The notes under the pieces are model-generated. The model did no database searches, was not told the DNA's origin, and saw only the letters and a program-made list of their open reading frames with translations. The position numbers and the translations under genes are program-made. This document shows, piece by piece, positions 173-59,877 of a stretch of 64,000 nt of DNA. The stretch is from Candidatus Altimarinota bacterium (GTDB lineage Bacteria > Patescibacteriota > Gracilibacteria > BD1-5 > UBA2023), in assembly GCA_031375155.1 (NCBI GenBank), contig JANMHM010000012.1, positions 2,343 to 66,342 of the forward strand, written 5' to 3'. Position 1 is the first letter of the stretch; each line of letters opens with the position of its first letter.

Positions 173-216
173 CCTGTCATTTCGACCGAAGCAAAGCGGA
201 GCGGAGAAATCTTGCT
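173..216. repeat. Hairpin repeat unit CCTGTCATTTCGA...GAGAAATCTTGC (intergenic copy)
   Basis: It shares a 12-nt left end and a 12-nt right end with the copy at 18549-18578, and its left end with 27627 and 55708. Confidence 0.6.
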
Positions 217-4522: not shown

Positions 4523-4541
4523 ATCTCTCTCGATATACTAT

Positions 4542-4575
4542 AAAAATATACCTCTAAATTTAGAGGTATATTTTT
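4542..4575. terminator. Bidirectional rho-independent terminator
   Basis: AAAAATATACCTCTAAATTTAGAGGTATATTTTT sits between convergent genes and overlaps the rsmA 3' end. Confidence 0.6.
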
Positions 4576-5471
4576 ATCCAATCCTCCTTCCTCACCGCCT
4601 CTGCCCGCACTTTCTCATCGTACCCACATTCTGTGAGCCATTTTTTCACTTCCTCGATATCGTAGTGACTTCACTTCAGATTGGAGAGGAGTGTTTTGCG
4701 TGGGTGGGTGAATGCTACTCTCCAGAGGGCGAGGAGTTTTTCTTCCCCGATTCGGTCACGAGATTTCTTCACCGAGAACTTCACCACGATAGAGTCCACT
4801 TTCGGTGCTGGGTCAAACGAAGCTCGCCCTACATACCGCACGATCTCGATATCTTTGCACGCGAGCTCCATAGCGAGGGAGAGATAGGAGTAGTGCGGTT
4901 TTTTCGCGCGTCAGGCAAGGATTTTTTCTCCTACTTCCTCCTGCATCATGATCACCATGGCTTCAGGTGGTGTAAGCCTCCTTTGTAAAGGAGGTGCCGA
5001 GGTACGAGGCGGAGGATTTTGCTCAGAAATCAAATCCCCCCTTCCCCCCTTTACAAAGGGGGCTTCGGGATACAAAAAATGAAATAATATAGGACTCGTG
5101 ATATAGTACGGGATATTCGCGATGACCGAGTAGTCGTCATATGGGGGAGTGAACTGGAGGATGTCCTCATGGTGGATGGCTATCGGAGTCGTCTTTACGA
5201 GATTATTTTCCTCTCCTTGTATCACTGGTGCGACTTCATCGCCCATATATCGTTCATCGAGGATCTCGATCATATCAGGATCGAGCTCGACGAGGTCGAG
5301 TGTGAGGGGATGATGCGAGAGGATATATTCGGTGAGTGCTCCATACCCAGGTCCGACTTCGATCACATGCCTACCTGCGAGCTCTATGGAGTGGGCGATA
5401 TCTCTGAGCGCCTCCTCGTCGATGAGGAAGTTTTGTCCGAGGGATTTTTTGGCTTTTATAGTTTTTTGCAT
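4560..5471 (-). CDS. rsmA: 16S rRNA (adenine1518/1519-N6)-dimethyltransferase RsmA/KsgA
   Basis: ORFs 4911-5471 and 4671-4871 are in one frame joined by TGA, with stop TAA at 4560. Motifs SLGQNFL, VIEVGPGYGALT, ANIPYYITSPIL and FDPAPKVDS. Confidence 0.9.
4968..5060. mobile_element. MITE-like palindromic element inserted in frame in rsmA
   Basis: 18-nt termini CCTCCTTTGTAAAGGAGG (4977-4994) and CCCCCTTTACAAAGGGGG (5045-5062) are inverted copies. Direct repeats GGCTTCAGG (4959) and GGCTTCGGG (5061) flank it, 102 nt apart. Confidence 0.6.
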
Positions 5472-6068: not shown

Positions 6069-6623
6069 ATGGCTGGTATAATCGGAAAAAAACTCGAAAT
6101 GACTCGTGTCCTTCATAATGGCGCGTTCACTCCTGTCACTCTTATCAAGGTTCCTACTCTCACTGTTGCCCAAGTCAAAACTCTGGAAACTGATGGCTAT
6201 ACAGCTATCGTCATTTCTATGAAAGACGGGAAGCAAGAGACACTCCGAGAAGTATCTATCACAGGAAACTTCACGGATCTCGAGAAAGGATCTGAGATCA
6301 CTCTCGATATGCTCGAAGGTGTCGTGAGTGTCAATGTAGTCTCTATATCTAAGGGTAAGGGTTTCCAAGGTGCTATGAAGCGCTGGAACTTCTCTGGAGG
6401 TCCTGGAGGACACGGACATAAATATACTCGTTCCCTCGGTTCTATCGGTACACGAAAACCTCGTCGTACAAAACTCGGAAAGAAGATGCACGGACATATG
6501 GGTCTCGATACGATCACCCTGAAAGATGTCCCACTTATCCTCGTGAATAAAGAACTCCGAGTGATCGCTGTAAAAGGTCCAGTCGCTGGCGCACGAAACT
6601 CACTCATCACTCTTACATTTTAG
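6069..6623 (+). CDS. rplC: 50S ribosomal protein L3
   Basis: Intact ORF starting MAGIIGKKLEMTRV. First gene of the cluster. Confidence 0.95.
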   Translation: MAGIIGKKLEMTRVLHNGAFTPVTLIKVPTLTVAQVKTLETDGYTAIVISMKDGKQETLREVSITGNFTDLEKGSEITLDMLEGVVSVNVVSISKGKGFQGAMKRWNFSGGPGGHGHKYTRSLGSIGTRKPRRTKLGKKMHGHMGLDTITLKDVPLILVNKELRVIAVKGPVAGARNSLITLTF

Positions 6624-6633
6624 TTTTTACTTG

Positions 6634-6677
6634 CCTAAGACCTAAGACCTAAGACCTAAGACCTAAAACCTAAAACC
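6634..6677 (+). repeat. Tandem heptamer array (CCTAAGA)x4 (CCTAAAA)x2
   Basis: Read directly. It ends 7 nt before the rplD ATG. Confidence 0.9.
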
Positions 6678-6684
6678 TCTCTCT

Positions 6685-7308
6685 ATGAAAGCTCCTCTCT
6701 TCGACACTCACGGAAAAAATAAAGGTACTATCGACCTTGAGGCTTCTCACTTTGGAGTCACTCCAAATGAAGGACTCATGCATCGACTCCTTATCCTTCA
6801 GCAGGCTAATGGCCGTATCGCTATAGCTCATACTAAGCATCGTGGTGAGATCCGAGGATCGACAAAGAAGCTTTTCAAGCAAAAAGGCACTGGTAGTGCT
6901 CGTATGGGTGATCGTCGTTCTCCTATGCGTCGTGGAGGAGGTGTCGTCTTTGGTCCTCGAAATGAGAGAAACTTCTCTGTTTCTATGAATGCCAAGGAAC
7001 GCCGTCTAGCTCTCCTTTCTCTTCTATCGACAAAAGCTACAGCAGAAAATATAAAAGTCGTTGAATCATTCGGAAAGGATACTGCGAAGACAAAATGAAT
7101 GGTAGCATTTCTCTCTACTATGGAGGCAAAAAAACCACTCATCGCTATTACTCGTGAAGAGAGATCAGAGATCGCAGGAGCGATGAATCTTCCAGAGCTC
7201 AAAGTCGTCAATATCGAATATCTCAATCCACACTCACTTCTCAAGTATACAGATCTCGTTCTCTCTGAAGCAGCTCTCAAGCACCTCTATACTCACTTTT
7301 CAAAATAA
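6685..7308 (+). CDS. rplD: 50S ribosomal protein L4
   Basis: ORFs 6685-7098 and 7099-7308 are in the same frame, joined by TGA. Confidence 0.95.
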
Positions 7309-7311
7309 ATC

Positions 7312-7400
7312 ATAGAACTTAGAACTTAGACTTTAGAACTTAGGAAAAACTCCGTTCAAATTCTCAGACTCTAAGCTCTAAACTCTAAATCCTAAACTCT
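7312..7400 (+). promoter_or_regulatory. Long imperfect intergenic hairpin (TTAGAAC arm versus CTAAAC arm)
   Basis: The left arm AGAACTTAGAACTTAGACTTTAGAACTTAGG pairs with CTAAGCTCTAAACTCTAAATCCTAAACTCT. I traced about 20 of 30 pairs by hand. Confidence 0.4.
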
Positions 7401-7405
7401 TCCTT

Positions 7406-7699
7406 ATGAACTCTCTCTATTCCGTCATCAAGCGATTCGCTGTCACCAATAAATCTACCGATGGTGAAGTACGTGGTGTATATACATGTTTTATAGATCC
7501 AAGTGCTACGAAGATCGATGTAAAAAATGCATTTAAAACTCTCTACGGAGTCGAGGTCGAGAAAGTAAACGTTCTCATGACTCGCGAGAAATACCATAAT
7601 ACAAAAATCTGAGTGGCTCGAAAAAAAGGCTCAGAAAAGAAAGCTATGGTCACCCTGAAAAATGGTGCAAAAATCGTAAATTTCGACGTCATACAGTAA
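7406..7699 (+). CDS. rplW: 50S ribosomal protein L23
   Basis: ORF 7406-7612 continues through one TGA to TAA 7697. Confidence 0.9.
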
Positions 7700-8603: not shown

Positions 8604-8867
8604 ATGACTCGTTCGCTCAAAAAATGACCATACATCGACCCGCGTGTGTCGAAAAAAATCGATGCACTCAATGCGAGTGGAAGAAAAAATGTCATCAAGA
8701 CATGGTCTCGAGCCTGTATGATTGCTCCTGAATTCGTCGGACATACCTTCGGTGTGCATAACGGAAAACAACATGTTCCTGTCTTCGTTACAGAAGATAT
8801 GGTAGGACACAAGCTCGGAGAGTTTTCATTTACTCGAAGATTCCAAGGTCATTCCGGAAATAAATAA
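8604..8867 (+). CDS. rpsS: 30S ribosomal protein S19
   Basis: MTRSLKK-G-PYIDP, with TGA 8625-8627 at the conserved Gly. Joins ORF 8646-8867. Confidence 0.95.
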
Positions 8868-8870
8868 TTA

Positions 8871-8975
8871 CCTAAGAACTTAGAACTGAGATTTTAGAAC
8901 TTAGGTACTCCTATGATTCGATCTCAGCTCTAAATCTCAAGTCCTAAGTCCCAAGATCTAAAACCTAAAATCTAC
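8871..8975 (+). promoter_or_regulatory. Long imperfect intergenic hairpin
   Basis: CCTAAGAACTTAGAACTGAGATTTTAGAACTTAGG faces CTCAGCTCTAAATCTCAAGTCCTAAGTCCCAAGATCTAAAACCTAAAATC. Confidence 0.35.
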
Positions 8976-8980
8976 TTTCT

Positions 8981-9307
8981 ATGAAAGCTTCCGTACAAAA
9001 TGTCCGCATCTCACCTAAAAAACTCAATGTGATTGCGTTCATTATCAGAAACATGACAGCAAAAGATGCTCTCGATACTCTCCGATTTATGCCAAAAAAA
9101 GGAGCTGATATCATGCTAAAGGTCCTCTCAAGTGCTGTGGCAAATGCGACTCATAATGATAGTCAAGTTCTCACTGATCTGACGATCTCTTCTGTGAGTG
9201 TCACACAGGGTATCGTCTATAAGCGTATCAATCCAGTTTCTCGAGGACGCGCTCACCGTATCCTCAAGCGTACATCTCATGTCGATCTCTCCCTTTCTGT
9301 AAAATAA
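8981..9307 (+). CDS. rplV: 50S ribosomal protein L22
   Basis: Intact ORF in the conserved position. Confidence 0.9.
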   Translation: MKASVQNVRISPKKLNVIAFIIRNMTAKDALDTLRFMPKKGADIMLKVLSSAVANATHNDSQVLTDLTISSVSVTQGIVYKRINPVSRGRAHRILKRTSHVDLSLSVK

Positions 9308-12257: not shown

Positions 12258-12286
12258 TCTTCCCTCTAAAACCTAAATTCCTCTCT

Positions 12287-12511
12287 ATGGCTCGAACAGC
12301 TCTCGTCAATAAATGTAGAAATGCTCAAAATGCAGCATCTCGCGCTCATGACCTCGGTAAAGAACCAAAATTCTCTACTCGACTCTACCACCGTTGCTCA
12401 CACTGTGGTCGATCGAACGGATATATCGGAAAATTCGATCTTTGTCGAATCTGTGTCCGCGAGAAGGCAAATGCCTGAGAACTTATGGGTGTTCGTAAGT
12501 CAAGCTGGTAA
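12287..12511 (+). CDS. rpsN: 30S ribosomal protein S14 (zinc-binding type)
   Basis: CSHCGR...CRIC. Continues through TGA to ...[11 protein letters not shown], with TAA at 12509. Confidence 0.9.
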
Positions 12512-14747: not shown

Positions 14748-14779
14748 TCCAAAGAATAAAAATCTAAAATCTACTTTCT

Positions 14780-15235
14780 ATGACAACTCTCACTACACTC
14801 AAGCCTACTCCAGGTTCTCTGACTCGTCCACGTCGCGTCGCTCGCGGTGTGAGCTCTGGTCTCTGAGGGACATGCGGACGCGGTATGAATGGTCAAAACT
14901 CTCGTACAGGAAAAGGAAAGCGCTATCCTACATTCGAAGGAGGACAGACTCGACTCTTTATCCGTACTCCGAAAAAGAGAGGATTCACTGCATACGCTCC
15001 GAAGGACTTCGTCACGATCAATCTCGATCAAATCCAGAAGCTCGCTGATGCTGGTATCACGACTGTGGACTACGCAGTCCTCTACGAGCGTCGTATGATC
15101 CGAGAGAAAGGAAAGCTCCTGAAAGTCCTCGGACGAGGTACTCTCACATCGAAGATCGAGCTCATGGCTGACTCCGTCTCTGCTGGTGCTCGTACTATGA
15201 TCGAGAAGGCAGGAGGTAGCGTGACCGTCGCATAA
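14780..15235 (+). CDS. rplO: 50S ribosomal protein L15
   Basis: ATG 14780. SSGL-G-GTCGRGMNGQ with TGA at a Gly position. Same frame as ORF 14885-15235. Confidence 0.95.
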
Positions 15236-17267: not shown

Positions 17268-17867
17268 ATGAAAATCTGCGTGTGGGATACAGAGACTACA
17301 GGATTCGCGACAAAATGAGGAGACCTCGCTCGACAGCCATATATCATCCAGTTTGCAGCGATCGAGTGAGAACTCGAGGGTGATGTATATCGTGAGATCG
17401 CACGTCACGATATCATGATCAAGCCATTTATATCGATCCCTTTCTGAGCTTCCCAAGTCAATGGTATCTATGATAAAGATGTCGCTGACTGTGAACCGAT
17501 GAATGTACATATAGATACCATACTACGTATACTCAATAATGCTGATCTCGTCTCAGGGCATAATATCGAATATGATGAAGATATCCTCTCCTACGAGCTC
17601 GCAAGACTCGGAAAAAGTGGAGAGTACTCTCCACAGAAGACGGTCTGTACTATGAGATCATCGACAGATTACTGTAAGCTCCAAGGGAGAGGATTTGCCT
17701 ATAAGCCGCCGAAACTTTCCGAGCTTCACAAACATCTTTTTTGAGAGTTTTTCGAATGAGCTCATGATGCTCTCATCGATGTAGAGGCGACTATGCGATG
17801 CTTCGTCGAGCTTGTCCGTAGATGAGTGATCGTCCCAGAGACATCGAATGTGATGCGATTGTTCTAG
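17268..17867 (+). CDS. DEDDh 3'-5' exonuclease (DnaQ/epsilon-like)
   Basis: Exo motifs VWDTETTG, GHNIEYDEDIL and HDALIDVEAT. Several in-frame TGA. TAG at 17865. Confidence 0.75.
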
Positions 17868-18997
17868 GAAAATTCTTCTATAATTCCACTTCCTATGACG
17901 ACGTCTTTATCGTAGATCACGCAGATCTGTCCTGGACTAATCGCGCGTTGGGGAACTGTAAACTGTAAACTGTAAATTATAGATTCAGCACCATTATCAT
18001 TTATAATTCATCATTTATAATTCATCATTACTTCCTGATCCTCCTGACGATACCGTATTTTCGCTCCATATCTTTTTCCTTCTTCTGGTAGAGTTCCTAC
18101 CCAATCTGTGAGAGTGCATTCACTTCCATAAAGCTCGAGCTCGTTCTCATTTCCTACGGTGATAGTGTTATTTTTCACATCCTTCGCTATTACGAAGAGT
18201 GCTGGTCATCATCCTACTTGTATACCCTTTCTTTGCCCGATAGTATAGGAATAGGCTCACTCGTGTTCCCCGATGACTATTCCAGATGTATCGAGGATGT
18301 TTCCTAGTTTTTTCGGGATCCTACGTTCGAGAAATTCTTTCATGCTCACTTTTCCGATAAAGCAGAGTCACTGTGAGTCTTTTCTTTCTGCATTGGGCAG
18401 TCATGCTTTTTTTGCTATGGCTCTGACTTCTGACTTGAGGAGGTGCCCTATCGGGAAGAGCGCATGTGAGATCTGGAATGGGGATAGTCGCGAGAGAAAG
18501 TATGATTGGTCTTTGTTTGGATCGACTCACTTCAGAAGTTGTATTTTTCTGTCATTTCGAGCTTGCGAGAAATCTTGCTCATGTATTCAGAGCAGGATGT
18601 CTCCTTTGTCGACATGACAGGTACGAGCATAGTGACCCATCGCGATACCATCATATCCGAGCGAGAGTGCTTCCTCGAGGAAGAGATCGAATTTTACGAG
18701 ATTGTTACAGAAAACGTCAGGATTGGGCGTCCTTCCCGCCTCATATTCACTATAGATGTATTCGATGATGCGTTTCTCATACTCTTCTCGATAATCGAAG
18801 GTGTAGAGAGGAAGATCGAGGTACTTTGCGACTTTTTTTGCCTCTTCGAGGTCTGCGAGCGTCGGACATGATTGTGGAAATTCCTCATCGAGATAATTGA
18901 TCATGAATCCACACGTCACTTCATGCCCATCTTGCTTGAGAAGATAGGCTGATACGGCAGAGTCTACTCATCATGAGAGTCATACGAGGATTTTCAT
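17864..18997 (-). CDS. mnmA: tRNA-specific 2-thiouridylase MnmA
   Basis: MKILVGLS-GG-VDSAV, with the PP-loop written TGA-TGA. Motifs [18 protein letters not shown] and [10 protein letters not shown]. One frame from 18997 down to TAG at 17864. Confidence 0.9.
18549..18578. repeat. Hairpin repeat unit CTGTCATTTCGA...GAGAAATCTTGC inside the mnmA coding frame
   Basis: Both 12-nt ends are identical to the intergenic copy at 173-216. It is translated as part of ...[19 protein letters not shown]... Confidence 0.6.
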
Positions 18998-21418: not shown

Positions 21419-21567
21419 TTTTGTCATTTCGTAGTGACCCGTCCTCCGCAGAAGCCCTGCTTCGGAGGATGGAAACGGAGAAATCCCTTTTAAAGTCATC
21501 TTATAAGAAATATATAAAAATATCTCTTGAGAGAAAAATATAGGGATGCCTACGGCATGACAAAATG
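21419..21567. mobile_element. 149-bp MITE-like element in the ahpC 5' UTR
   Basis: Terminal inverted repeats TTTTGTCATTTCGTAG (21419) and CTACGGCATGACAAAA (21552-21567). 14 of 16 positions match after reverse-complementing. Confidence 0.55.
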
Positions 21568-22233: not shown

Positions 22234-22246
22234 TATTTCAATTTCT

Positions 22247-22280
22247 AAAAAATCCTCTTTCACCTGAGAGAGGATTTTTT
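22247..22280. terminator. Rho-independent terminator
   Basis: AAAAAATCCTCT-TTCACCTG-AGAGGATTTTTT. Confidence 0.7.
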
Positions 22281-22296
22281 AATAGTATTGAGAAAC

Positions 22297-23161: not shown

Positions 23162-23207
23162 TTGATACAGCATTATAGAGGCTTTTACCTTATGGGCAAA
23201 AGACAAC

Positions 23208-23245
23208 AAAAACCTCCTGAAGCTTCAGGGGGTTTTTGTTTTTTG
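23208..23245. terminator. Rho-independent terminator
   Basis: AAAAACCTCCTGAAGCTTCAGGGGGTTTTTGTTTTTT. Confidence 0.7.
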
Positions 23246-27202: not shown

Positions 27203-27317
27203 TTATAGACAGATAAACTTGCATGAAATATGTAATTTATGATATAAAAAGTTTGATTTCTCGGAAAATCTGATATAATAATCTCGTCTTCCAAGATAAA
27301 GGAAATATATCTCCTTT

Positions 27318-27350
27318 GAAAAATCCCTCTGTCACGAGGGATTTTTCTTT
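27318..27350. terminator. Rho-independent terminator
   Basis: GAAAAATCCCTC-TGTCAC-GAGGGATTTTTCTTT. Confidence 0.6.
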
Positions 27351-27560
27351 GTTGATCTTAGCGTTTCCGCTTCACAACTCGCTCATAGATACCAGATATT
27401 TCTATCCGTATCAAGCGATGCTTCCAGTAGGGAAGTTCCAAGATAAACTTCTTCATAAGAAGAAATGGTTAGGAGATATATCTCCTTGCTCCTTCTGGAA
27501 GCAAGGAGCTTCGAAATTATATATTTTTCTTCGAAAAATCAACTTTACCAAAATACATCA

Positions 27561-27607
27561 TTCTGACCACAAAATTTGCTCACACTTTTCCCTTCAGGAA
27601 GCCATAG
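27561..27607 (+). repeat. 47-bp direct repeat, copy 1
   Basis: TTCTGACCACAAAATTTGCTCACACTTTTCCCTTCAGGAAGCCATAG, identical to 31718-31764. Confidence 0.9.
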
Positions 27608-27626
27608 CATACAAGTATCTAGTGTT

Positions 27627-27669
27627 CCTGTCATTTCGAGCGGAGATGATAAGTGAAGTCGAGAAATCC
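27627..27669. repeat. Hairpin repeat unit CCTGTCATTTCGAG...GTCGAGAAATCC
   Basis: Same termini family as the copies at 173, 18549 and 55708. Confidence 0.6.
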
Positions 27670-27731
27670 TTCTCTCAAAAAACTCCTCTTTCCTCGGTTT
27701 ATTATTTTAACTGCTCGAGTCAATAGTTAGT

Positions 27732-31517: not shown

Positions 31518-31717
31518 ACGTAAATATTTTTGTGCTCACGAAGAAAGAGATAGTGACTGCAGTGGTCACATTGCTTGTGGTTCAGGACGTGCAGAAGACG
31601 ATGATAATGACACTTAAAAATATTTATAAGAGAGAATATCAGTATATATTACATTTAAATTTTATTTGTCAATATTATTTTCACACTCTTCCGAGAAAGA
31701 CGTACAGAAAGCCACAC

Positions 31718-31764
31718 TTCTGACCACAAAATTTGCTCACACTTTTCCCTTCAGGAAGCCATAG
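31718..31764 (+). repeat. 47-bp direct repeat, copy 2
   Basis: Identical to 27561-27607. Confidence 0.9.
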
Positions 31765-32304: not shown

Positions 32305-32385
32305 AATTGTAAATGATAAATGTTAAATGATAAATTCATATACCATTCCTCATTTATAATTTATAACTTATAATTTATAATTTCT
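32305..32385 (+). promoter_or_regulatory. AT-rich imperfect intergenic hairpin/repeat region
   Basis: TGTAAATGATAAATGTTAAATGATAAAT faces ATTTATAATTTATAACTTATAATTTATAATTT. Confidence 0.3.
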
Positions 32386-37357: not shown

Positions 37358-37630
37358 ATGGCACATAAAAAAGCGATGTGATCGACCTCGAACGGTCGTG
37401 ATAGTCAAGCCAAAAGACTTGGTGTAAAAATCTACGGATGACGTCCAGCAATCTCTGGAAATATCATCATCAGACAAAAGGGAAATGCCTTCTGGCCTGG
37501 TGCTGGTGTGGAACAAGGAACTGACTTCACTCTTTTCGCTGTACGCGATGGTGTCGTCAACTTTCAGGAGAAGCGTCGTGTCCGATTCGATGGACGTGTC
37601 TACCGTGATATGTACGTATCAGTAGTATAA
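37358..37630 (+). CDS. rpmA: 50S ribosomal protein L27
   Basis: [28 protein letters not shown]..., with 2 TGA. Not in the standard-code track. Confidence 0.9.
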
Positions 37631-37705
37631 TCCAGAACTTAGTATTTAGGACTTGGAGCTTAGAAATATTACTTTCAGTTCTTCCTAATTCCTAAAACCT
37701 AAATT

Positions 37706-45279: not shown

Positions 45280-45365
45280 TTCACCTTATAAGAAATATAT
45301 GATTTCTTCCTTATAAGTATAAGTAAAAGAGATTCCTCCGCTTCGCTACGGAATGACAAAAAATC
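45280..45365. repeat. Relative of the 21419-21567 element
   Basis: Shares CTTATAAGAAATATAT and the terminus CTACGGAATGACAAAAAA with the ahpC-UTR element. Confidence 0.5.
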
Positions 45366-45368
45366 ACC

Positions 45369-47705
45369 TTAGGTTCCGTTATTTTTCGGGACTTTATAGT
45401 ATTCGAGGAGATACTGTGCGATCTCAGCGAAGAGTGCTGAAGATGTCGTCTCAGAGTATATATCTGACCGAGGACGATTGATCGAGACGATAAGGACAAA
45501 CTTGGGATTATTGGCTGGCGCATATCCCCCATATGAGGTGATCGTGTGACCGAGATCACTTCCGAGGATGCGGTTCTCGTATCATCCCTTCATAGGTATT
45601 TGCGATGTTCCTGTCTTTCCAGCGATCGTGTAGCCTGCGACTCATCATTTTTTCGCAAAACCATTTCGTACGCTATCGATGAGCATCGCAGTGACTTCTT
45701 TTGAGGTTTCTTCTTTTATCACTCTTCGAATCGGGGTCGGGATGGTATCGATTTTTTTGCCATCTGGATAGATGAGTGACTCGACGATATAGGGCTCCAT
45801 ATACACGCCGCCATTCGCGATCACAGAGTAGGCTGCAGCCATCTGGAGCATAGTGATATTGATCCCTTGGCCGAACGACATCGTGAAAAACTGTGTCCGA
45901 GACCATTTCTCATATGGGCTGATCTTTGCATAGTGCTCACCATCGAGAGTGATATTGCTCTTCGTCCCGAGACCGAAATCAGAGAGATATTTACTAAAGA
46001 GGGAAGGACCTATTTTTTGGATAATATCGATCATACCGACATTACATGACCAGTCGAGAGCATGGATATACGTATGCCTTCCTGAACATGTTGAAGATAC
46101 ATTTGATATTCTCCCCTTTTGTCATCAGCCATAGTCGAGCTCGACATATCACTTATCGTAGTAGGTATCATTGGGAGATATTTCTCCTGTATCTATACCT
46201 ATAGCGACAGTAAGTGCCTTAAATACTGATCCAGGTTCGTAGAGTGCCGTGATGATATCGTTGGTATAGACTCAGGCACCATATTTATTTTTGTACTTAT
46301 ACTTCGGTATTGCGAATGTCGCGATCTCATCATCACTCGCCTCTCGAAGCTTCAGTCGCTGTCCATCGATATTCGAGAAGAGTGTCCCGCTCTGCGTATC
46401 GATGACAAAAAGCGGGATACCAAAAAGCTCAAAACTGGGATTTCCATATGTAGCATAGTTTACCTTTTCCATATCATAGACATCGGTAAAGCTATTGGGA
46501 TCAAAATCTGGATAATTGACCATAGAAATGATCGCTCCTGTTTTTGGATCCATGACTATCACACTTCATTTATTTCCTCGAAATTTTTCTACAGCTCGCG
46601 CGAGGCGAGTCGATATTTCCTTTTGGATATTTCGATCTATTGTCAGCGCGACATCTACTCCACTTTTGAGCGAGACGAGCTCTTTCGATACGTATCATCC
46701 TATCGGTCTCCCGGCACTATCTTTGGTCACTCTTTGTGTCGGACTTTCTGCCTGGAGTGTATCCTGGAAGTAGCCCTCTATCCCATACTTTCCATCACCT
46801 ATACCATCGACAAATCCAGTGATCTGTCCTGTTACTTGGCGTTCTGGGTAGAATCGTACGAGGTTATCCTCGATTTTTATATAGGGAACAATAGAATTTT
46901 CCATCTGAAGCTGACCTCCTTTGATAGCGGTTCTTTCAGAGGTAAGCCTTTTTATCACCGCGTCACGCGTACTCACGCTCATTTTTCGGATGATTTCTAG
47001 GTGTTGCTTTTTTCGTATTTCGAGTTTCGGACTCACTGTCTTTATATCTACACCGAGTACGTCTGAGAGCTTCAGTGCGAGAGCAGGTCTATCTATTATT
47101 TTTGTAGGATTTACATAGAGATTATTCACGACAAAAAAGAGTGACTCGTCTTGCCATGCTATGATCCGCTCGATCTTATCTTCACTCAGGTTTTGGGAGA
47201 TTTCGACACTCTCTATAGGTGATTCTATCTTTCCAGTGAGATAGATTTTGATCCTATTTTTGAGCTCAGTGACGGTGATATCTTTCTCACTCGTGAGATC
47301 AGTACGGAGATAGGTACTCATATTTTCCAGACAAGGAGTCGTCGAATAGGTACAAAACTCTTCGAAAACGATATCAGAGAGAAATATAAGGAGCTTATCT
47401 CGGGATCACGTCTGTGATGGATCGATCGCGAGATTTCCGAGGTTGGTCGATACAGCGAGGGCTCACTTTAGCGATGCTTCTGATGAGTAGATCGTCCCTC
47501 GTGAGACAGGATTTCTCAGTATCATCGTCTGCTGATCGTAGGCGATCTTCTGATAAAAATCTCCATGGATCATCGTATAGTTAAATGTCGTAACCAAGAG
47601 AAAGAAAGCATAGAGAATTCCTATATACCAGGCCATCCCGATACGATCTAGCCGTTTGAAGTGATTATAGATGAGAGTGAGAATGTGTTCGAGTGAGATT
47701 TTCAT
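45369..47705 (-). CDS. Class B penicillin-binding protein (PBP2/FtsI-type transpeptidase), 778 aa
   Basis: Four ORF-track fragments lie in one frame. N-terminal TM, then SVFK (SxxK) and KTGT motifs. TAA at 45369. Confidence 0.85.
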
Positions 47706-50436: not shown

Positions 50437-50456
50437 CTCTTAGTATTCTCTATAAT

Positions 50457-50485
50457 AAAAATCCCTCCGAATTGGAGGGATTTTT
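50457..50485. terminator. Bidirectional rho-independent terminator
   Basis: AAAAATCCCTCC-GAAT-TGGAGGGATTTTT. Confidence 0.7.
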
Positions 50486-50495
50486 AGAAATTTTT

Positions 50496-51019: not shown

Positions 51020-51790
51020 CTATGTCCGAAACCGACTCGCTTCTACTTTTTCTCTGCACTTTTCCCAGAGAGCATCAGAGATATCTGCGTTGTTCCATAC
51101 AGATTCGACATCTTCATCTCACTCGAATTCTTCGAGCATTTTATAGATTTTGAGAGCATTCTCCTCATCGGTGACTTCGATATAGGCTTTCGGTATATAC
51201 TCAAAACTCCCTTTTGCTATAGCGTACCCAGCTTTTTCGAGTGATTTTCGTACCTCGGCGAACTTCGTCCTATCGGTCAGGATCTCTGCGTCACTTCACT
51301 CGATCGTATAGTCCTCTGCGGGAGTCTCCATGATCGCCATTTCGAGCTGTTCTGTATTCGAAGATTCAGAAACCATGATCACTCCGCGATACTCGAAAGC
51401 GAAGCTCGACACTGTCCCTGTCTCTCCGAGAGAGCCTCCGAATGCAGAGAAGATATGCCGCATACTCGGTGCGGTGCGGTTGCGATTATCTGAGAGGGCT
51501 CGGACGATCACACCGACTCCACCAGGAGCATATCCCTCATAGATAATCTCTTCGACTTTCGCAGATTCCTTATCCAGTCAGGCTCACCTGCGAATAGCAC
51601 GATCGATCACATCGATATTCACTCCTGCTTTTTTTGCGGTGGTGATGGCATCAGCGAGAGCATGATTTTGCCCTGGATCAGCCCCTCGTTCTGCGGCTAT
51701 GGCTATGATCTTCGAGTGGATGGCATAGATCTTCGATTTTTCTTTTGCACCGGCTTCTTTCTGAGCGGCGACAGTAGGTCAGCGTCACAT
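51020..51790 (-). CDS. yebC: YebC/PmpR-family transcriptional regulator
   Basis: ATG (reverse complement) at 51788-51790, followed by TGA, CGC, TGA (MGRG...). Motifs YEGYAPGGVGVIV and LSDNRNRTAPSMRHIF. TAG at 51020. Confidence 0.85.
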
Positions 51791-52107
51791 AAATTTGAGA
51801 ACTTAGGTTTTAGGATTGAGAACTTAGGATATGGAAAAATGGAGGGAAGGCAAGAGGAGAAAAGTAGAAAAAATGCAAAAAGTGAAAAAGTAGAAAAATA
51901 TGGGGTGGGGCATACTGGAAAATAAAAACTGCGATTCTTGTATACAAAAATTTCTAACAAATTTCTAACATTTCGGGTAGATTTTTCTAAAATACTTTGA
52001 CTCTACTCTCTCTCTCGATACTATTCGAAACGCTTCTGGAAATCTTTCTAGTGAGCCAGGAGAACATCCTGACTTCATCATACCAAAATATATAGGAATA
52101 GCTTCAA

Positions 52108-55205: not shown

Positions 55206-56057
55206 CTATGATTTCTGTACAGAGTACATCCACTCCTCATTCCCCGCCTCCCCAATGACACTCGATTTCTCTTTTTGCAAAATTTCGCAATTATGTAGTT
55301 CGAGAAAATCTTCCCACTCTTTTTGCCTTTTCTGTACGATTTTCTCATTTTTCACGACTCAGGTTTTCCGGAGATGTTCTCGTCCGACCTCGAACTGCGG
55401 TTTCCAGAGAAGGATGATATGAGTCTGAGTATCTGCGAATCTCAGTATGCTTGGCAAGATTCCCTGGAGTGATATAAATGAAGCATCACAGACGATGATG
55501 TCGTAGTGTGTACTGCTCTCGAACTCTCGTATATCAGTCTGCTCATAGCTGGTAACTCGAATATCGTTTCTGATGCTTTCATGAAGTTGGGCGGTTCCTA
55601 CATCCACTGCATCTACATGACTCGCTCATCGATCCAGGAGGACCTGCGTGAATCATCCTGTCGACGATCCGACATCGAGACAATACATTCATTCGATCTG
55701 CAATGATTCCTGTCATTTCGAAGTATGAGAAAGCTTCCTCTGTGTACCTTCTAGCAAGATGTCTTCATCCTTCGTAGTACTACGGAGAACAGGTCCTATC
55801 ATCGATACGACAGGCACTAATAATTCTCATTGTTGAATTCACAATTGCTCAAGAAATCCATCGAGCTTCCCTGCACTGCGAGAGACCCAATGAAGACTCT
55901 TGTCTTCAATTAAATTCACAATATCTGATTCACTCACACCGAACGATACTTTAGTGATATTGTTTCCGTTCACTTCTGCGAGTCCAGATTCGATATATTG
56001 CTTCGCTTTGTTTCTTGTGAAGCCATATTTCTCACTAATGAAGAGATCAAGTCGCAT
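55206..56057 (-). CDS. tlyA: TlyA-family rRNA 2'-O-methyltransferase with an S4 domain
   Basis: ORFs 55839-56057 and 55359-55607 are in one frame. Motifs WVSRSAGKL, LDVGSSTGGFTQVLLDRGA and KPQFEVG. TAG at 55206. Confidence 0.85.
55708..55815. mobile_element. 108-bp MITE-like element inserted in frame in tlyA
   Basis: Termini CCTGTCATTTCGA (55708) and TCGATACGACAGG (55803-55815) are inverted repeats (11 of 13 match). TCATT pentamers at 55689 and 55827 lie 138 nt (46 codons) apart. Confidence 0.6.
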
Positions 56058-59846: not shown

Positions 59847-59877
59847 CAAAAACTCCAGTAATACTGGAGTTTTTTTT
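59847..59877. terminator. Rho-independent terminator
   Basis: AAAAACTCCAGTA-ATACTGGAGTTTTTTTT. Confidence 0.7.

Follow-up and report, generated by a model that had tools for sequence, protein, structure and literature searches.

A tail-to-tail doublet of tagged palindromic repeats lies in frame within mnmA of a Gracilibacteria bacterium that reads TGA as glycine

We analysed a 64,000-nt stretch of genomic DNA (hereafter the window) from Candidatus Altimarinota bacterium, a member of the Gracilibacteria within the candidate phyla radiation (CPR) (GenBank GCA_031375155.1, contig JANMHM010000012.1, positions 2,343-66,342). In its mnmA gene, which encodes the tRNA thiolase, we identified a segment that is very probably a non-autonomous palindromic repeat, inserted in frame and translated with the gene, namely an inverted dimer of the CGTC/TGTC-tagged superfamily of repetitive extragenic palindromic (REP) sequences. 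This insert spans positions 18548-18621 of the window, corresponds to approximately 23 codons and is composed of two hairpin units connected by a spacer in tail-to-tail (inverted) orientation.

A doublet of hairpin units in the mnmA reading frame

The mnmA coding sequence occupies positions 17864-18997 on the minus strand and comprises 377 codons and a stop codon under genetic code 25, in which TGA specifies glycine. Its open reading frame (ORF) and translation are intact under this code, with in-frame TGA codons recurring along the whole gene, in agreement with the glycines written into an earlier reading of this DNA made from the sequence alone (hereafter the sequence-only reading). A homologue search returned Candidatus Gracilibacteria MnmA proteins with E values down to 1e-183, and the product also matched MnmA in the Protein Data Bank (PDB) with E=2.5e-78. 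Its Pfam domains are PF03054 (residues 1-216), PF20259 (residues 220-282) and PF20258 (residues 298-373).

Unit B (positions 18548-18577, plus strand) is antisense to mnmA and encodes ...QDFSQARND. It features the tag TGTC, the stem ATTTC/GAAAT, a tandem GA/GA motif and a G(CTTG)C loop. This is the unit that the sequence-only reading had recognised; its sequence CTGTCATTTCGAGCTTGCGAGAAATCTTGC is indeed located at 18549-18578, and both of its 12-nt ends recur in an intergenic copy at 174-185 and 204-215, with the observed 12-mer counts reached in 0/100 and 1/100 shuffles, respectively. Unit A (positions 18593-18621, minus strand; CCTGTCATGTCGAcaaagGAGACATCCTG) had been missed. It is sense to mnmA, encodes CHVDKGDIL and has the stem ATGTC/GACAT, with a compensatory G:C pair relative to the consensus ATTTC/GAAAT. 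Both units were matched by a covariance model built from other phyla's copies only (E=6.6e-7 for unit B and 8.4e-3 for unit A), and for unit A the expectation by chance in shuffles was 0. The 15-nt spacer (positions 18578-18592) holds an in-frame TGA (Gly) codon at 18587-18589 and, at 18586-18591, the second of two TTCAGA hexamers. These hexamers had been described as bracketing the element; they are present at 18531 and 18586, but the second sits between the units. We considered the pair as a target-site duplication and rejected this because it does not flank the doublet.

The mRNA of the doublet folds as one long hairpin (-29.1 kcal/mol, z=-4.5, 0/200 shuffles). Within this long hairpin the G:C pair of unit A lies against the T:A pair of unit B and produces mismatches. 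Compensatory changes occur inside the units and not between the dimer partners, which suggests that the small hairpins are what is maintained.

Orthologues with and without the doublet

We surveyed the stretch between GHYAR and LLK(G) in 120 Gracilibacteria homologues of MnmA. This stretch measures 5-6 residues in most homologues, 9 residues in one subclade and 28 residues in the window protein. The loop is empty in 78 of the 120, contains peptides typical of the hairpin family in 10 and carries other inserts in 32, so the ortholog alignment confirmed the length difference proposed by the sequence-only reading. The size of the surplus, given there as about 19 codons, required correction: relative to empty Gracilibacteria orthologues it amounts to 66-69 nt (22-24 codons), and the doublet adds a 23-residue peptide (+R). 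The boundary also moved. 'DILL' had been aligned with 'SRLL' of the E. coli protein, whereas the native strand is KIQLLKG and the upstream unit, of 17 residues, belongs to the insert. An assignment of an 11-residue segment as native, based on its resemblance to E. coli RADVDGKSRLL, was ruled out by the empty state of 5-6 residues in Gracilibacteria.

At the DNA level, two empty orthologues (L002 and L004, 72-74% protein identity) align with the window to positions 18627 and 18622, and their alignments resume at 18553 and 18534, respectively. The empty-site alignments therefore break at the doublet edges, and the surplus coincides with the doublet. P0001 and P0002, the closest relatives at 75-76% identity, carry an orthologous doublet, as does P0003. 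Among orthologues, the left unit reads ATGTC/GACAT (L001 and L005) or ATATC/GATAT (L003), with both sides of the stem changed, and the right-unit loop measures 6, 21 or approximately 45 nt, always a multiple of three.

The inserts of L001, L003 and L005 are collinear with the window doublet and also with an intergenic doublet in the Gracilibacteria metagenome-assembled genome (MAG) L065 (JANNCQ010000085). In L065 the same composite, approximately 85% identical, lies in a spacer between convergent genes and matches the mnmA doublet in its asymmetric pair of units, its G(CTTG)C loop and the CTCTGA with which the spacer starts. The whole doublet is a repeated element found in coding and non-coding contexts, which supports and extends to the doublet the earlier claim that one repeat occupies both non-coding sites and the mnmA frame.

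Position of the insert in the MnmA fold

The insert corresponds approximately to residues 127-150 of MnmA. It had been expected between the catalytic and central domains; this proved incorrect, and the insert sits on a beta-hairpin tip within the catalytic HUP domain at the N terminus (PF03054). Alignment with solved MnmA structures leaves an 18-residue gap exactly at the insert (Streptococcus pneumoniae MnmA), and the solved structures from other phyla have no homologous peptide at this position, as the sequence-only reading had anticipated. We modelled the structure with AlphaFold2 on P0002, the closest orthologue carrying the same insert (mean predicted local distance difference test, pLDDT, 85.5). 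In this model the insert forms two short low-confidence helices (block pLDDT 68, 53 and 65) flanked by confident strands (residues 136-139 and 168-171), and the remainder superimposes on 2HMA/2DET with TM scores of 0.84-0.89. According to the model, the insert occupies a surface loop at the tip of the beta-hairpin in the catalytic domain.

These observations bear on the possibility that MnmA has gained a functional part specific to this lineage, such as a lobe that binds tRNA or a partner, which is under selection as protein and resembles the repeat by origin only. The insert has been kept across approximately 25% protein divergence (in the window, P0001 and P0002, and also in P0003, P0007 and P0008), its peptide is partly conserved (RH[VI]DEGDILL ... 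SARND[RK]) and AlphaFold2 predicts the two short helices within it. However, model confidence for the insert is low (pLDDT 53-68), the right-unit loop varies from 6 to approximately 45 nt between orthologues, and the changes that have been retained preserve base pairing, such as GTC/GAC to ATC/GAT. Moreover, 78 of 120 orthologues manage without the insert, others have unrelated inserts at the same loop, and the same DNA element is non-coding elsewhere. We consider a functional addition improbable, and the roughly 23 extra residues would most likely be a passenger rather than a functional module.

Dependence on reading TGA as glycine

Throughout the window TGA is a sense codon, specifying Gly under code 25, and standard-code ORF calling splits most of its genes; in mnmA it cuts the gene at 18587-18589. 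Homologues in databases have W or G at TGA positions, according to the code used by the source.

Under the standard code, one frame of the repeat unit is always stopped by a TGA arising from ...AAATGACAG (60/60 units), whereas under code 25 essentially every frame is open. For the mnmA doublet, six of six frames are open under code 25 versus three of six under code 11. The frame used by mnmA holds the TGA at 18587-18589, and the frame used by a second insert, in a TlyA-like gene of the window (see below), holds the unit's own TGA. Both insertions would therefore truncate the protein in a standard-code organism, and the mnmA insert is readable only because this organism reads TGA as glycine.

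This frame logic also addresses a reading in which the palindrome lies in the gene yet is left untranslated, being cut from the mRNA or bypassed by the ribosome with the strong hairpin as a signal. The doublet mRNA hairpin is very stable, as described above, and the mnmA frame across the insert contains TGA under the standard code. Nonetheless, TGA is a sense codon throughout mnmA and the genome, all five sequenced inserts are free of stops and keep the frame, and their loop-length differences are multiples of three, a pattern that would be required only of a segment that is read. The insert in TlyA likewise keeps the frame. Removal or bypass of the segment is, in our judgement, very improbable.

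Outside the insert, the C-terminal domain of mnmA contains a 14-nt tandem repeat, TCATTTATAATTCA, in two copies and one partial copy (positions 17997-18046), which encodes ...MMNYKGGIINDNG... and includes two TGA codons. MnmA is here approximately 10 residues longer than solved MnmA structures, and this repeat may represent a second, unrelated expansion within the gene.

Structure and distribution of the repeat family

We scanned one genome per species with the pattern CTGTCATTTCGA-N4-34-GAGAAATC, which matched at least 120 loci against a chance expectation that we estimate at a few tens of loci; the phyla and the counts of units, loops, tags and pairs reported here are those among the matches listed. 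These loci belong to Bacteroidota, Chloroflexota, Clostridia, Desulfobacterota, Planctomycetota, Nitrospirota, Verrucomicrobiota, Omnitrophota, Patescibacteria and Proteobacteria, and to one Methanosarcinales MAG.

The commonest form of the unit is 27 nt long and reads CTGTCATTTCGA-xCGNAGx'-GAGAAATC. Of 85 units, 77 have a complementary x/x' pair, 74 are closed by a C-G pair and 68 have a GNA triloop; ATTTCGAGCGAAGCGAGAAAT is the DNA of a single unit with the tandem G.A and GNA motifs. The stem spans nine positions, the first two pairs (A-U and U-A) being invariant and positions 6-7 forming tandem G.A rather than Watson-Crick pairs. Although pairing was not imposed, 47 of the 61 left stems other than TTT have an exact complementary right stem. 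In an alignment of 60 sequences, 97.4% of cells are paired, and 51 cells are changed on both sides, compared with 13±2.6 in shuffles (0/500).

When the tag was not fixed in the pattern, it was TGTC in 240 of 263 units and CGTC in 10, a count that is biased because the loci were chosen with a CTGTC pattern; the orthologous inserts in L001, L003, L005 and L006 begin with CGTC-AT. Fully paired 8-bp hairpins with a [CT]GTC tag, such as ATTCCCGC, co-occur in only five loci. Most units end in a C-T-n tail and five in CCA, and L006 has ...AATCCAGG. The 4-nt CTTG loop of unit B is accompanied in the family by longer loops, which are common. Inverted pairs predominate: among approximately 250 units, 47-61 pairs are tail-to-tail, 12 are head-to-head and 14 are direct, with spacers of 3-76 nt, mostly 14-40 nt; the mnmA dimer is a heterodimer of an ATGTC unit and an ATTTC unit. 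We propose a unit plan of approximately 28 nt, in which an unpaired (C/T)GTC tag would precede a stem that starts with A-T and consists of five Watson-Crick pairs, two tandem G.A pairs and two further pairs, capped by a loop of the GNA or CUUG type and followed by a short C-T tail.

No target-site duplication was detected, as the best flanking direct repeats of 58 dimers equalled those of re-paired controls. Palindromic flanks, which would indicate insertion into pre-existing hairpins, were unsupported (4.86 versus 4.68 matches per 10), and singlets showed no orientation bias at gene 3' ends (9 sense versus 10 antisense). When 2537 ORFs from 120 loci (8 kb each) were clustered all against all, no recurrent transposase family emerged, a weak negative given that a single-copy gene would rarely fall in 8-kb flanks; the sole recurrent neighbourhood family was a generic sensor-kinase/response-regulator cluster. 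Rfam gave no match at the gathering threshold in the window, and no relevant match either at E<=10 in 18480-18700 or at E<=1 in four multi-copy loci.

The unit was also found on 42 viral or proviral contig stretches, some of them multi-copy, and the exact 24-mer of unit B was found on 69 metagenome stretches, often amid chains of GNA mini-hairpins; the 24-mer matches come mostly from GC-rich organisms, not from additional Gracilibacteria sites. In-frame units occur beyond the Gracilibacteria. In a Bacteroidales MAG (L041:3549-5600, minus strand) a unit lies in frame inside a Peptidase_M3 domain that is matched end to end, and in L056:795-2111 (plus strand) one lies in frame in the UPF0004/Radical_SAM linker of a MiaB-like protein.

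Several loci show the unit in longer arrangements. L110:1730-2500 contains arrays of 4-6 units approximately 170-190 nt apart with conserved flanks. The viral contigs L141 and L142 are multi-copy, with five and four copies, and L059 is a further locus of this kind; at these loci the unit forms part of a longer tandemly repeated module. On the GC-rich metagenome contigs L171-L238, the 24-mer is followed by chains of mini-hairpins with GAA loops (CCT-GCGCGAAGCGC-A-TCCGACGAAGTCGGA...), modular clusters reminiscent of bacterial interspersed mosaic elements (BIMEs). In L012, L020, L033 and L103, two to three tandem partial left arms (CTGTCATTTCGAGCCAC(C/T)CTTC repeated) precede a complete unit, which suggests slippage or nested insertion within the element.

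Comparison with known palindromic repeats

The unit corresponds most closely to the CGTC-tagged REP superfamily, described as families CGTC-1 to -4 (Di Nocera, De Gregorio, Rocco 2013, BMC Genomics 14:522, PMC3733652). Members of this superfamily carry an unpaired tag, CGTC or its variants TGTC and CCTC, at one hairpin end, an 8-9 bp stem starting with complementary A-T residues, a 4-5 nt loop (other loop lengths occur in some species) and a short unpaired tail at the 3' end with the consensus CCA (PMC3733652). They frequently form head-to-head or tail-to-tail dimers, often heterodimers, with spacers of 20-100 bp; they are mostly intergenic near gene 3' ends, are distributed over five phyla, have no dedicated transposase and include RPE-4 and RPE-6, two Rickettsia palindromic elements (RPEs), of R. 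conorii (PMC3733652). More than half of their intragenic inserts are dimers encoding 20-30 residues, with peptides such as CHSRESGNP, VIPAKAGI, SFPRKRES and DSRFRGND in Additional file 3 of that study (PMC3733652).

The elements described here share with this superfamily the tag, the A-T stem start, the dimers (often heterodimers), a mostly intergenic location near gene 3' ends, the absence of a transposase near units and intragenic dimers that keep the frame. The frame peptides CHVDKGDI and SQARND parallel CHSRESGNP and DSRFRGND, following the patterns CH.....P/I, VI......, SF...... and ...R(N/G)ND. They differ in several respects. The stem is interrupted by two tandem G.A pairs (ATTTC-GA-xC), compared with published stems of 8-9 bp; the loop is mostly the 3-nt GNA, or CUUG in unit B, compared with 4-5 nt; the tail is C-T-n and not CCA. 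Their spread extends far beyond the five published phyla, and the host uses code 25.

RPEs (Ogata et al. 2000, Science 290:347; reviewed in PMC10969869) share with the mnmA doublet the presence of palindromic repeats in frame in housekeeping genes, at surface-compatible positions and in a reduced genome. Since RPE-4 and RPE-6 are CGTC-tagged REPs (PMC3733652), they are relatives of the window element and not mere analogues. RPE-1, however, is approximately 150 bp long and encodes a conserved peptide of 30-50 residues, whereas the window element is a 74-nt dimer of 28-nt units; the RPE host is an alphaproteobacterium, whereas here it is a member of the Gracilibacteria and the reading needs TGA=Gly.

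The REP doublets forming hairpins (REPINs) and the GTAG REPs are mobilised by REP-associated tyrosine transposases (RAYTs) (Bertels and Rainey 2011, PMC3116915; Quentin et al. 2018, PMC6006769). Like the element described here, they are short hairpins, mostly inverted doublets that fold as one long hairpin, with singlets also existing and no target-site duplication. They carry a 5' GT[AG]G guide and are species-specific in the GTAG case (PMC6006769), whereas the foot here is (C/T)GTC, never GTAG or GTGG, and the sequence of the window unit is conserved across phyla. Among the proteins scanned in the 64-kb window we found no RAYT or Y1 transposase, and none recurs in the flanks. Miniature inverted-repeat transposable elements (Correia/NEMIS, RUP, ERIC) are likewise small, non-coding, multi-copy and palindromic overall, and can form in-frame fusions (PMC10969869); they differ in a typical length of 70-300 bp, a parent insertion sequence and a target-site duplication, whereas the window unit is shorter, with no known parent and no duplication. 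The inverted ends of the mnmA dimer arise by construction, from two inverted units. In-frame REP and RPE insertions have been documented (PMC10969869, PMC6006769); our literature search found no published in-frame palindromic inserts for Gracilibacteria or CPR, and one preprint gives Gracilibacteria the second-highest inverted-repeat density of all phyla.

Further copies in the window and varied inserts at the MnmA and TlyA loops

In the window, the covariance model matched six copies: the two in mnmA, one in the TlyA-like gene and three in intergenic regions. The intergenic single unit at 173-214 (plus strand, E=1.9e-5) lies 18 nt past the stop of the upstream gene and before a grpE-like gene. 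The unit at 45328-45360 (minus strand, E=1.1e-3) combines an ATTCC/GGAAT stem with a GCGAAGC mini-hairpin and lies 9 nt after the stop of a gene resembling penicillin-binding protein (PBP) genes (45369-47705, minus strand). The third, at 27627-27671 (plus strand; matched by the model over 27630-27671, E=0.013), is a single unit with a 23-nt loop in the spacer 27203-27731, in which the ORF called has no Pfam match. A probable seventh unit at 21420-21488 (plus strand), with a 45-nt loop containing its own hairpin, lies in the dps-ahpC spacer; it was detected by pattern only and not matched by the covariance model, and L005 carries a unit in the orthologous ferritin-AhpC spacer (4609-4631). All seven window units begin with (C/T)TGTC-AT. 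The intergenic copies all follow the upstream gene in sense, and are too few to count. A 62-nt direct repeat (27546-27607 and 31703-31764, 89% identical) has its first copy just 5' of the unit at 27627-27671.

The TlyA-like gene (55206-56057, minus strand) contains a 44-codon insert (55704-55835, minus strand; residues 75-118) in the linker between the S4 and methyltransferase domains. When the protein is aligned with M. tuberculosis TlyA, the query skips from residue 74 to 119 while the TlyA chain stays at one position, residue 95, and the segment measures 32-37 residues in 110 of 121 homologues versus 77 residues in the window protein. The insert holds a unit at 55709-55737 (plus strand, antisense; two mismatches, 0 expected; E=1.5e-3), which is read in the frame AAA TGA CAG as K G Q. 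Judging from end motifs, a decayed partner unit CCTGT...GACATCTTGCT is possible at approximately 55750-55790. A TlyA entry that is 98% identical (P0121) was considered as a sister strain and rejected, as it comes from the same genome and the difference consists of W versus G at TGA codons.

Both loops accommodate varied inserts in other Gracilibacteria. The MnmA loop of other lineages contains ATTGC-type dimers (RHCEEWND...ASQARNDG) or a different palindrome family (SPLLEGEG...RRRVGDEV); in P0082, P0049, P0017 and P0009 a different family of palindromic repeats fills the loop, with the peptides TPHPSPLLEGEG...PSPLRRRVGDEV and SSPTLLLKEKG...SLKERGLGGEV. Some Gracilibacteria carry heptad-like low-complexity runs at the loop, such as MKNSKLKIQN...LESGILNLE. 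P0042, a MnmA homologue of 490 residues, has a DUF559/Vsr-like endonuclease domain in frame at the same loop (residues ~128-281); this domain (PF04480, E=2e-25) is complete with 154 residues and its flanks are of palindrome type (CPSPKIGEAGRGV ... PLDPPILGGDW). The TlyA linker of other Gracilibacteria contains other hairpin dimers, such as SRHCDERSNP...GSLRPSRRQ.

In the window, period-7 heptamer arrays of the CTAAGAC, TTAGAAC and CTAAAAC types fill short spacers directly upstream of starts, in the ribosomal-protein cluster. The arrays lie at 6621-6692, 7305-7410, 8866-8990, 12259-12291, 14748-14788, 32336-32385, 37618-37658 and 51789-51829, and other Gracilibacteria have related heptad-like peptides inserted at their MnmA loop. 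AT-flanked palindromes that are perfect or nearly so (for example AACAAAAACCTCCTGAAG/CTTCAGGGGGTTTTTGTT) are found in intergenic positions at 4540-4577, 22246-22281, 23205-23240, 50456-50486 and 59848-59874; these resemble intrinsic terminators acting in both directions and have no relation to the TGTC-tagged units.

The variety of inserts leads to one further explanation, in which they arise locally and repeatedly by replication slippage, template switching or gene conversion rather than by transposition, the loop being a mutational hotspot. In keeping with this, the units have no target-site duplication or transposase, lineages differ in what the MnmA loop carries, from various palindromes and heptad-like low-complexity runs to a DUF559 domain, the TlyA linker is similar, and partial tandem left-arm copies adjoin full units in other phyla. 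De novo origin, however, cannot explain the approximately 85% identity of the composite with an intergenic copy in another genome, nor the exact 12-nt ends common to other copies. Gene conversion or template switching that draws on existing copies may contribute, and would in effect be a way of copying this element. We regard local origin as hardly credible.

Discussion

On the reading that we favour, insertion of a tagged REP dimer, the dimer would have entered mnmA in the ancestor of the clade comprising the window, P0001 and P0002, and would have landed at the tip of a surface beta-hairpin of the catalytic domain. It would persist there because its length is a multiple of three, the loop is tolerant and it has no stop codon in this organism. 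The compensatory changes keep the pairing within each unit, and constraint, or homogenisation, therefore acts on the nucleic acid. The likeliest mode of spread would be hairpin-dependent cut-and-paste or copying of single-strand DNA by a trans-acting nuclease; that neither target-site duplications nor a linked transposase were found is consistent with what has been published on CGTC REPs.

A number of points weigh against this account. The insertion event is deduced from orthologues that are 72-76% identical; the near-identical contig L127 is from the same genome, and no genome more than 90% identical with an empty site was present among those compared. Single units are no more stable than shuffles when nearest-neighbour energies are computed (z about 0), and the evidence for the unit stem is its covariation. 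The unit is assigned to the CGTC superfamily as a whole rather than to one of the families CGTC-1 to -4, and its tandem G.A stem and 3-nt loop depart from the 8-9 bp stems and 4-5 nt loops described. Translation of the insert is predicted from the frame and from stop-codon logic. The scan for a transposase, target duplication, flank signature or orientation bias was negative, and a mobility mechanism is not thereby indicated. Finally, the recurrent inserts at the same loops could reflect one ancient gain and many precise losses rather than repeated insertion.

In-frame palindromic inserts as such were known already. Moderately new are the host phylum, the reliance on TGA=Gly, the repeated use of the same two loops and a distribution much wider than published. 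Teaching usually presents in-frame palindromic repeats in housekeeping genes as a peculiarity of Rickettsia. In this CPR bacterium, members of that superfamily lie in two genes for RNA modification in a stretch of 64 kb, at loops with varied inserts across the clade. As the unit's only standard-code stop is TGA, organisms with TGA=Gly can accept the unit in any frame. In practical terms, such inserts inflate protein lengths, break gene calls under code 11 and seed spurious small ORFs with CH..., VI... and ...RND peptides.

The breadth of the family, with many bacterial phyla, one archaeal MAG and viral contigs, extends well past the five phyla of 2013, although CGTC REPs are sequence-conserved hairpins without a transposase. 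In this context we raise, as a speculation that we think rather unlikely, that REP dimers are still mobile in Gracilibacteria and repeatedly and independently enter the same MnmA and TlyA loops, with the change of TGA to Gly removing the unit's only stop and opening six frames. If this were true, code-25 genomes would be a natural system for finding the mobilisation mechanism of the transposase-less CGTC REPs, and a change of genetic code would be shown to alter the tolerance of a genome to selfish DNA.

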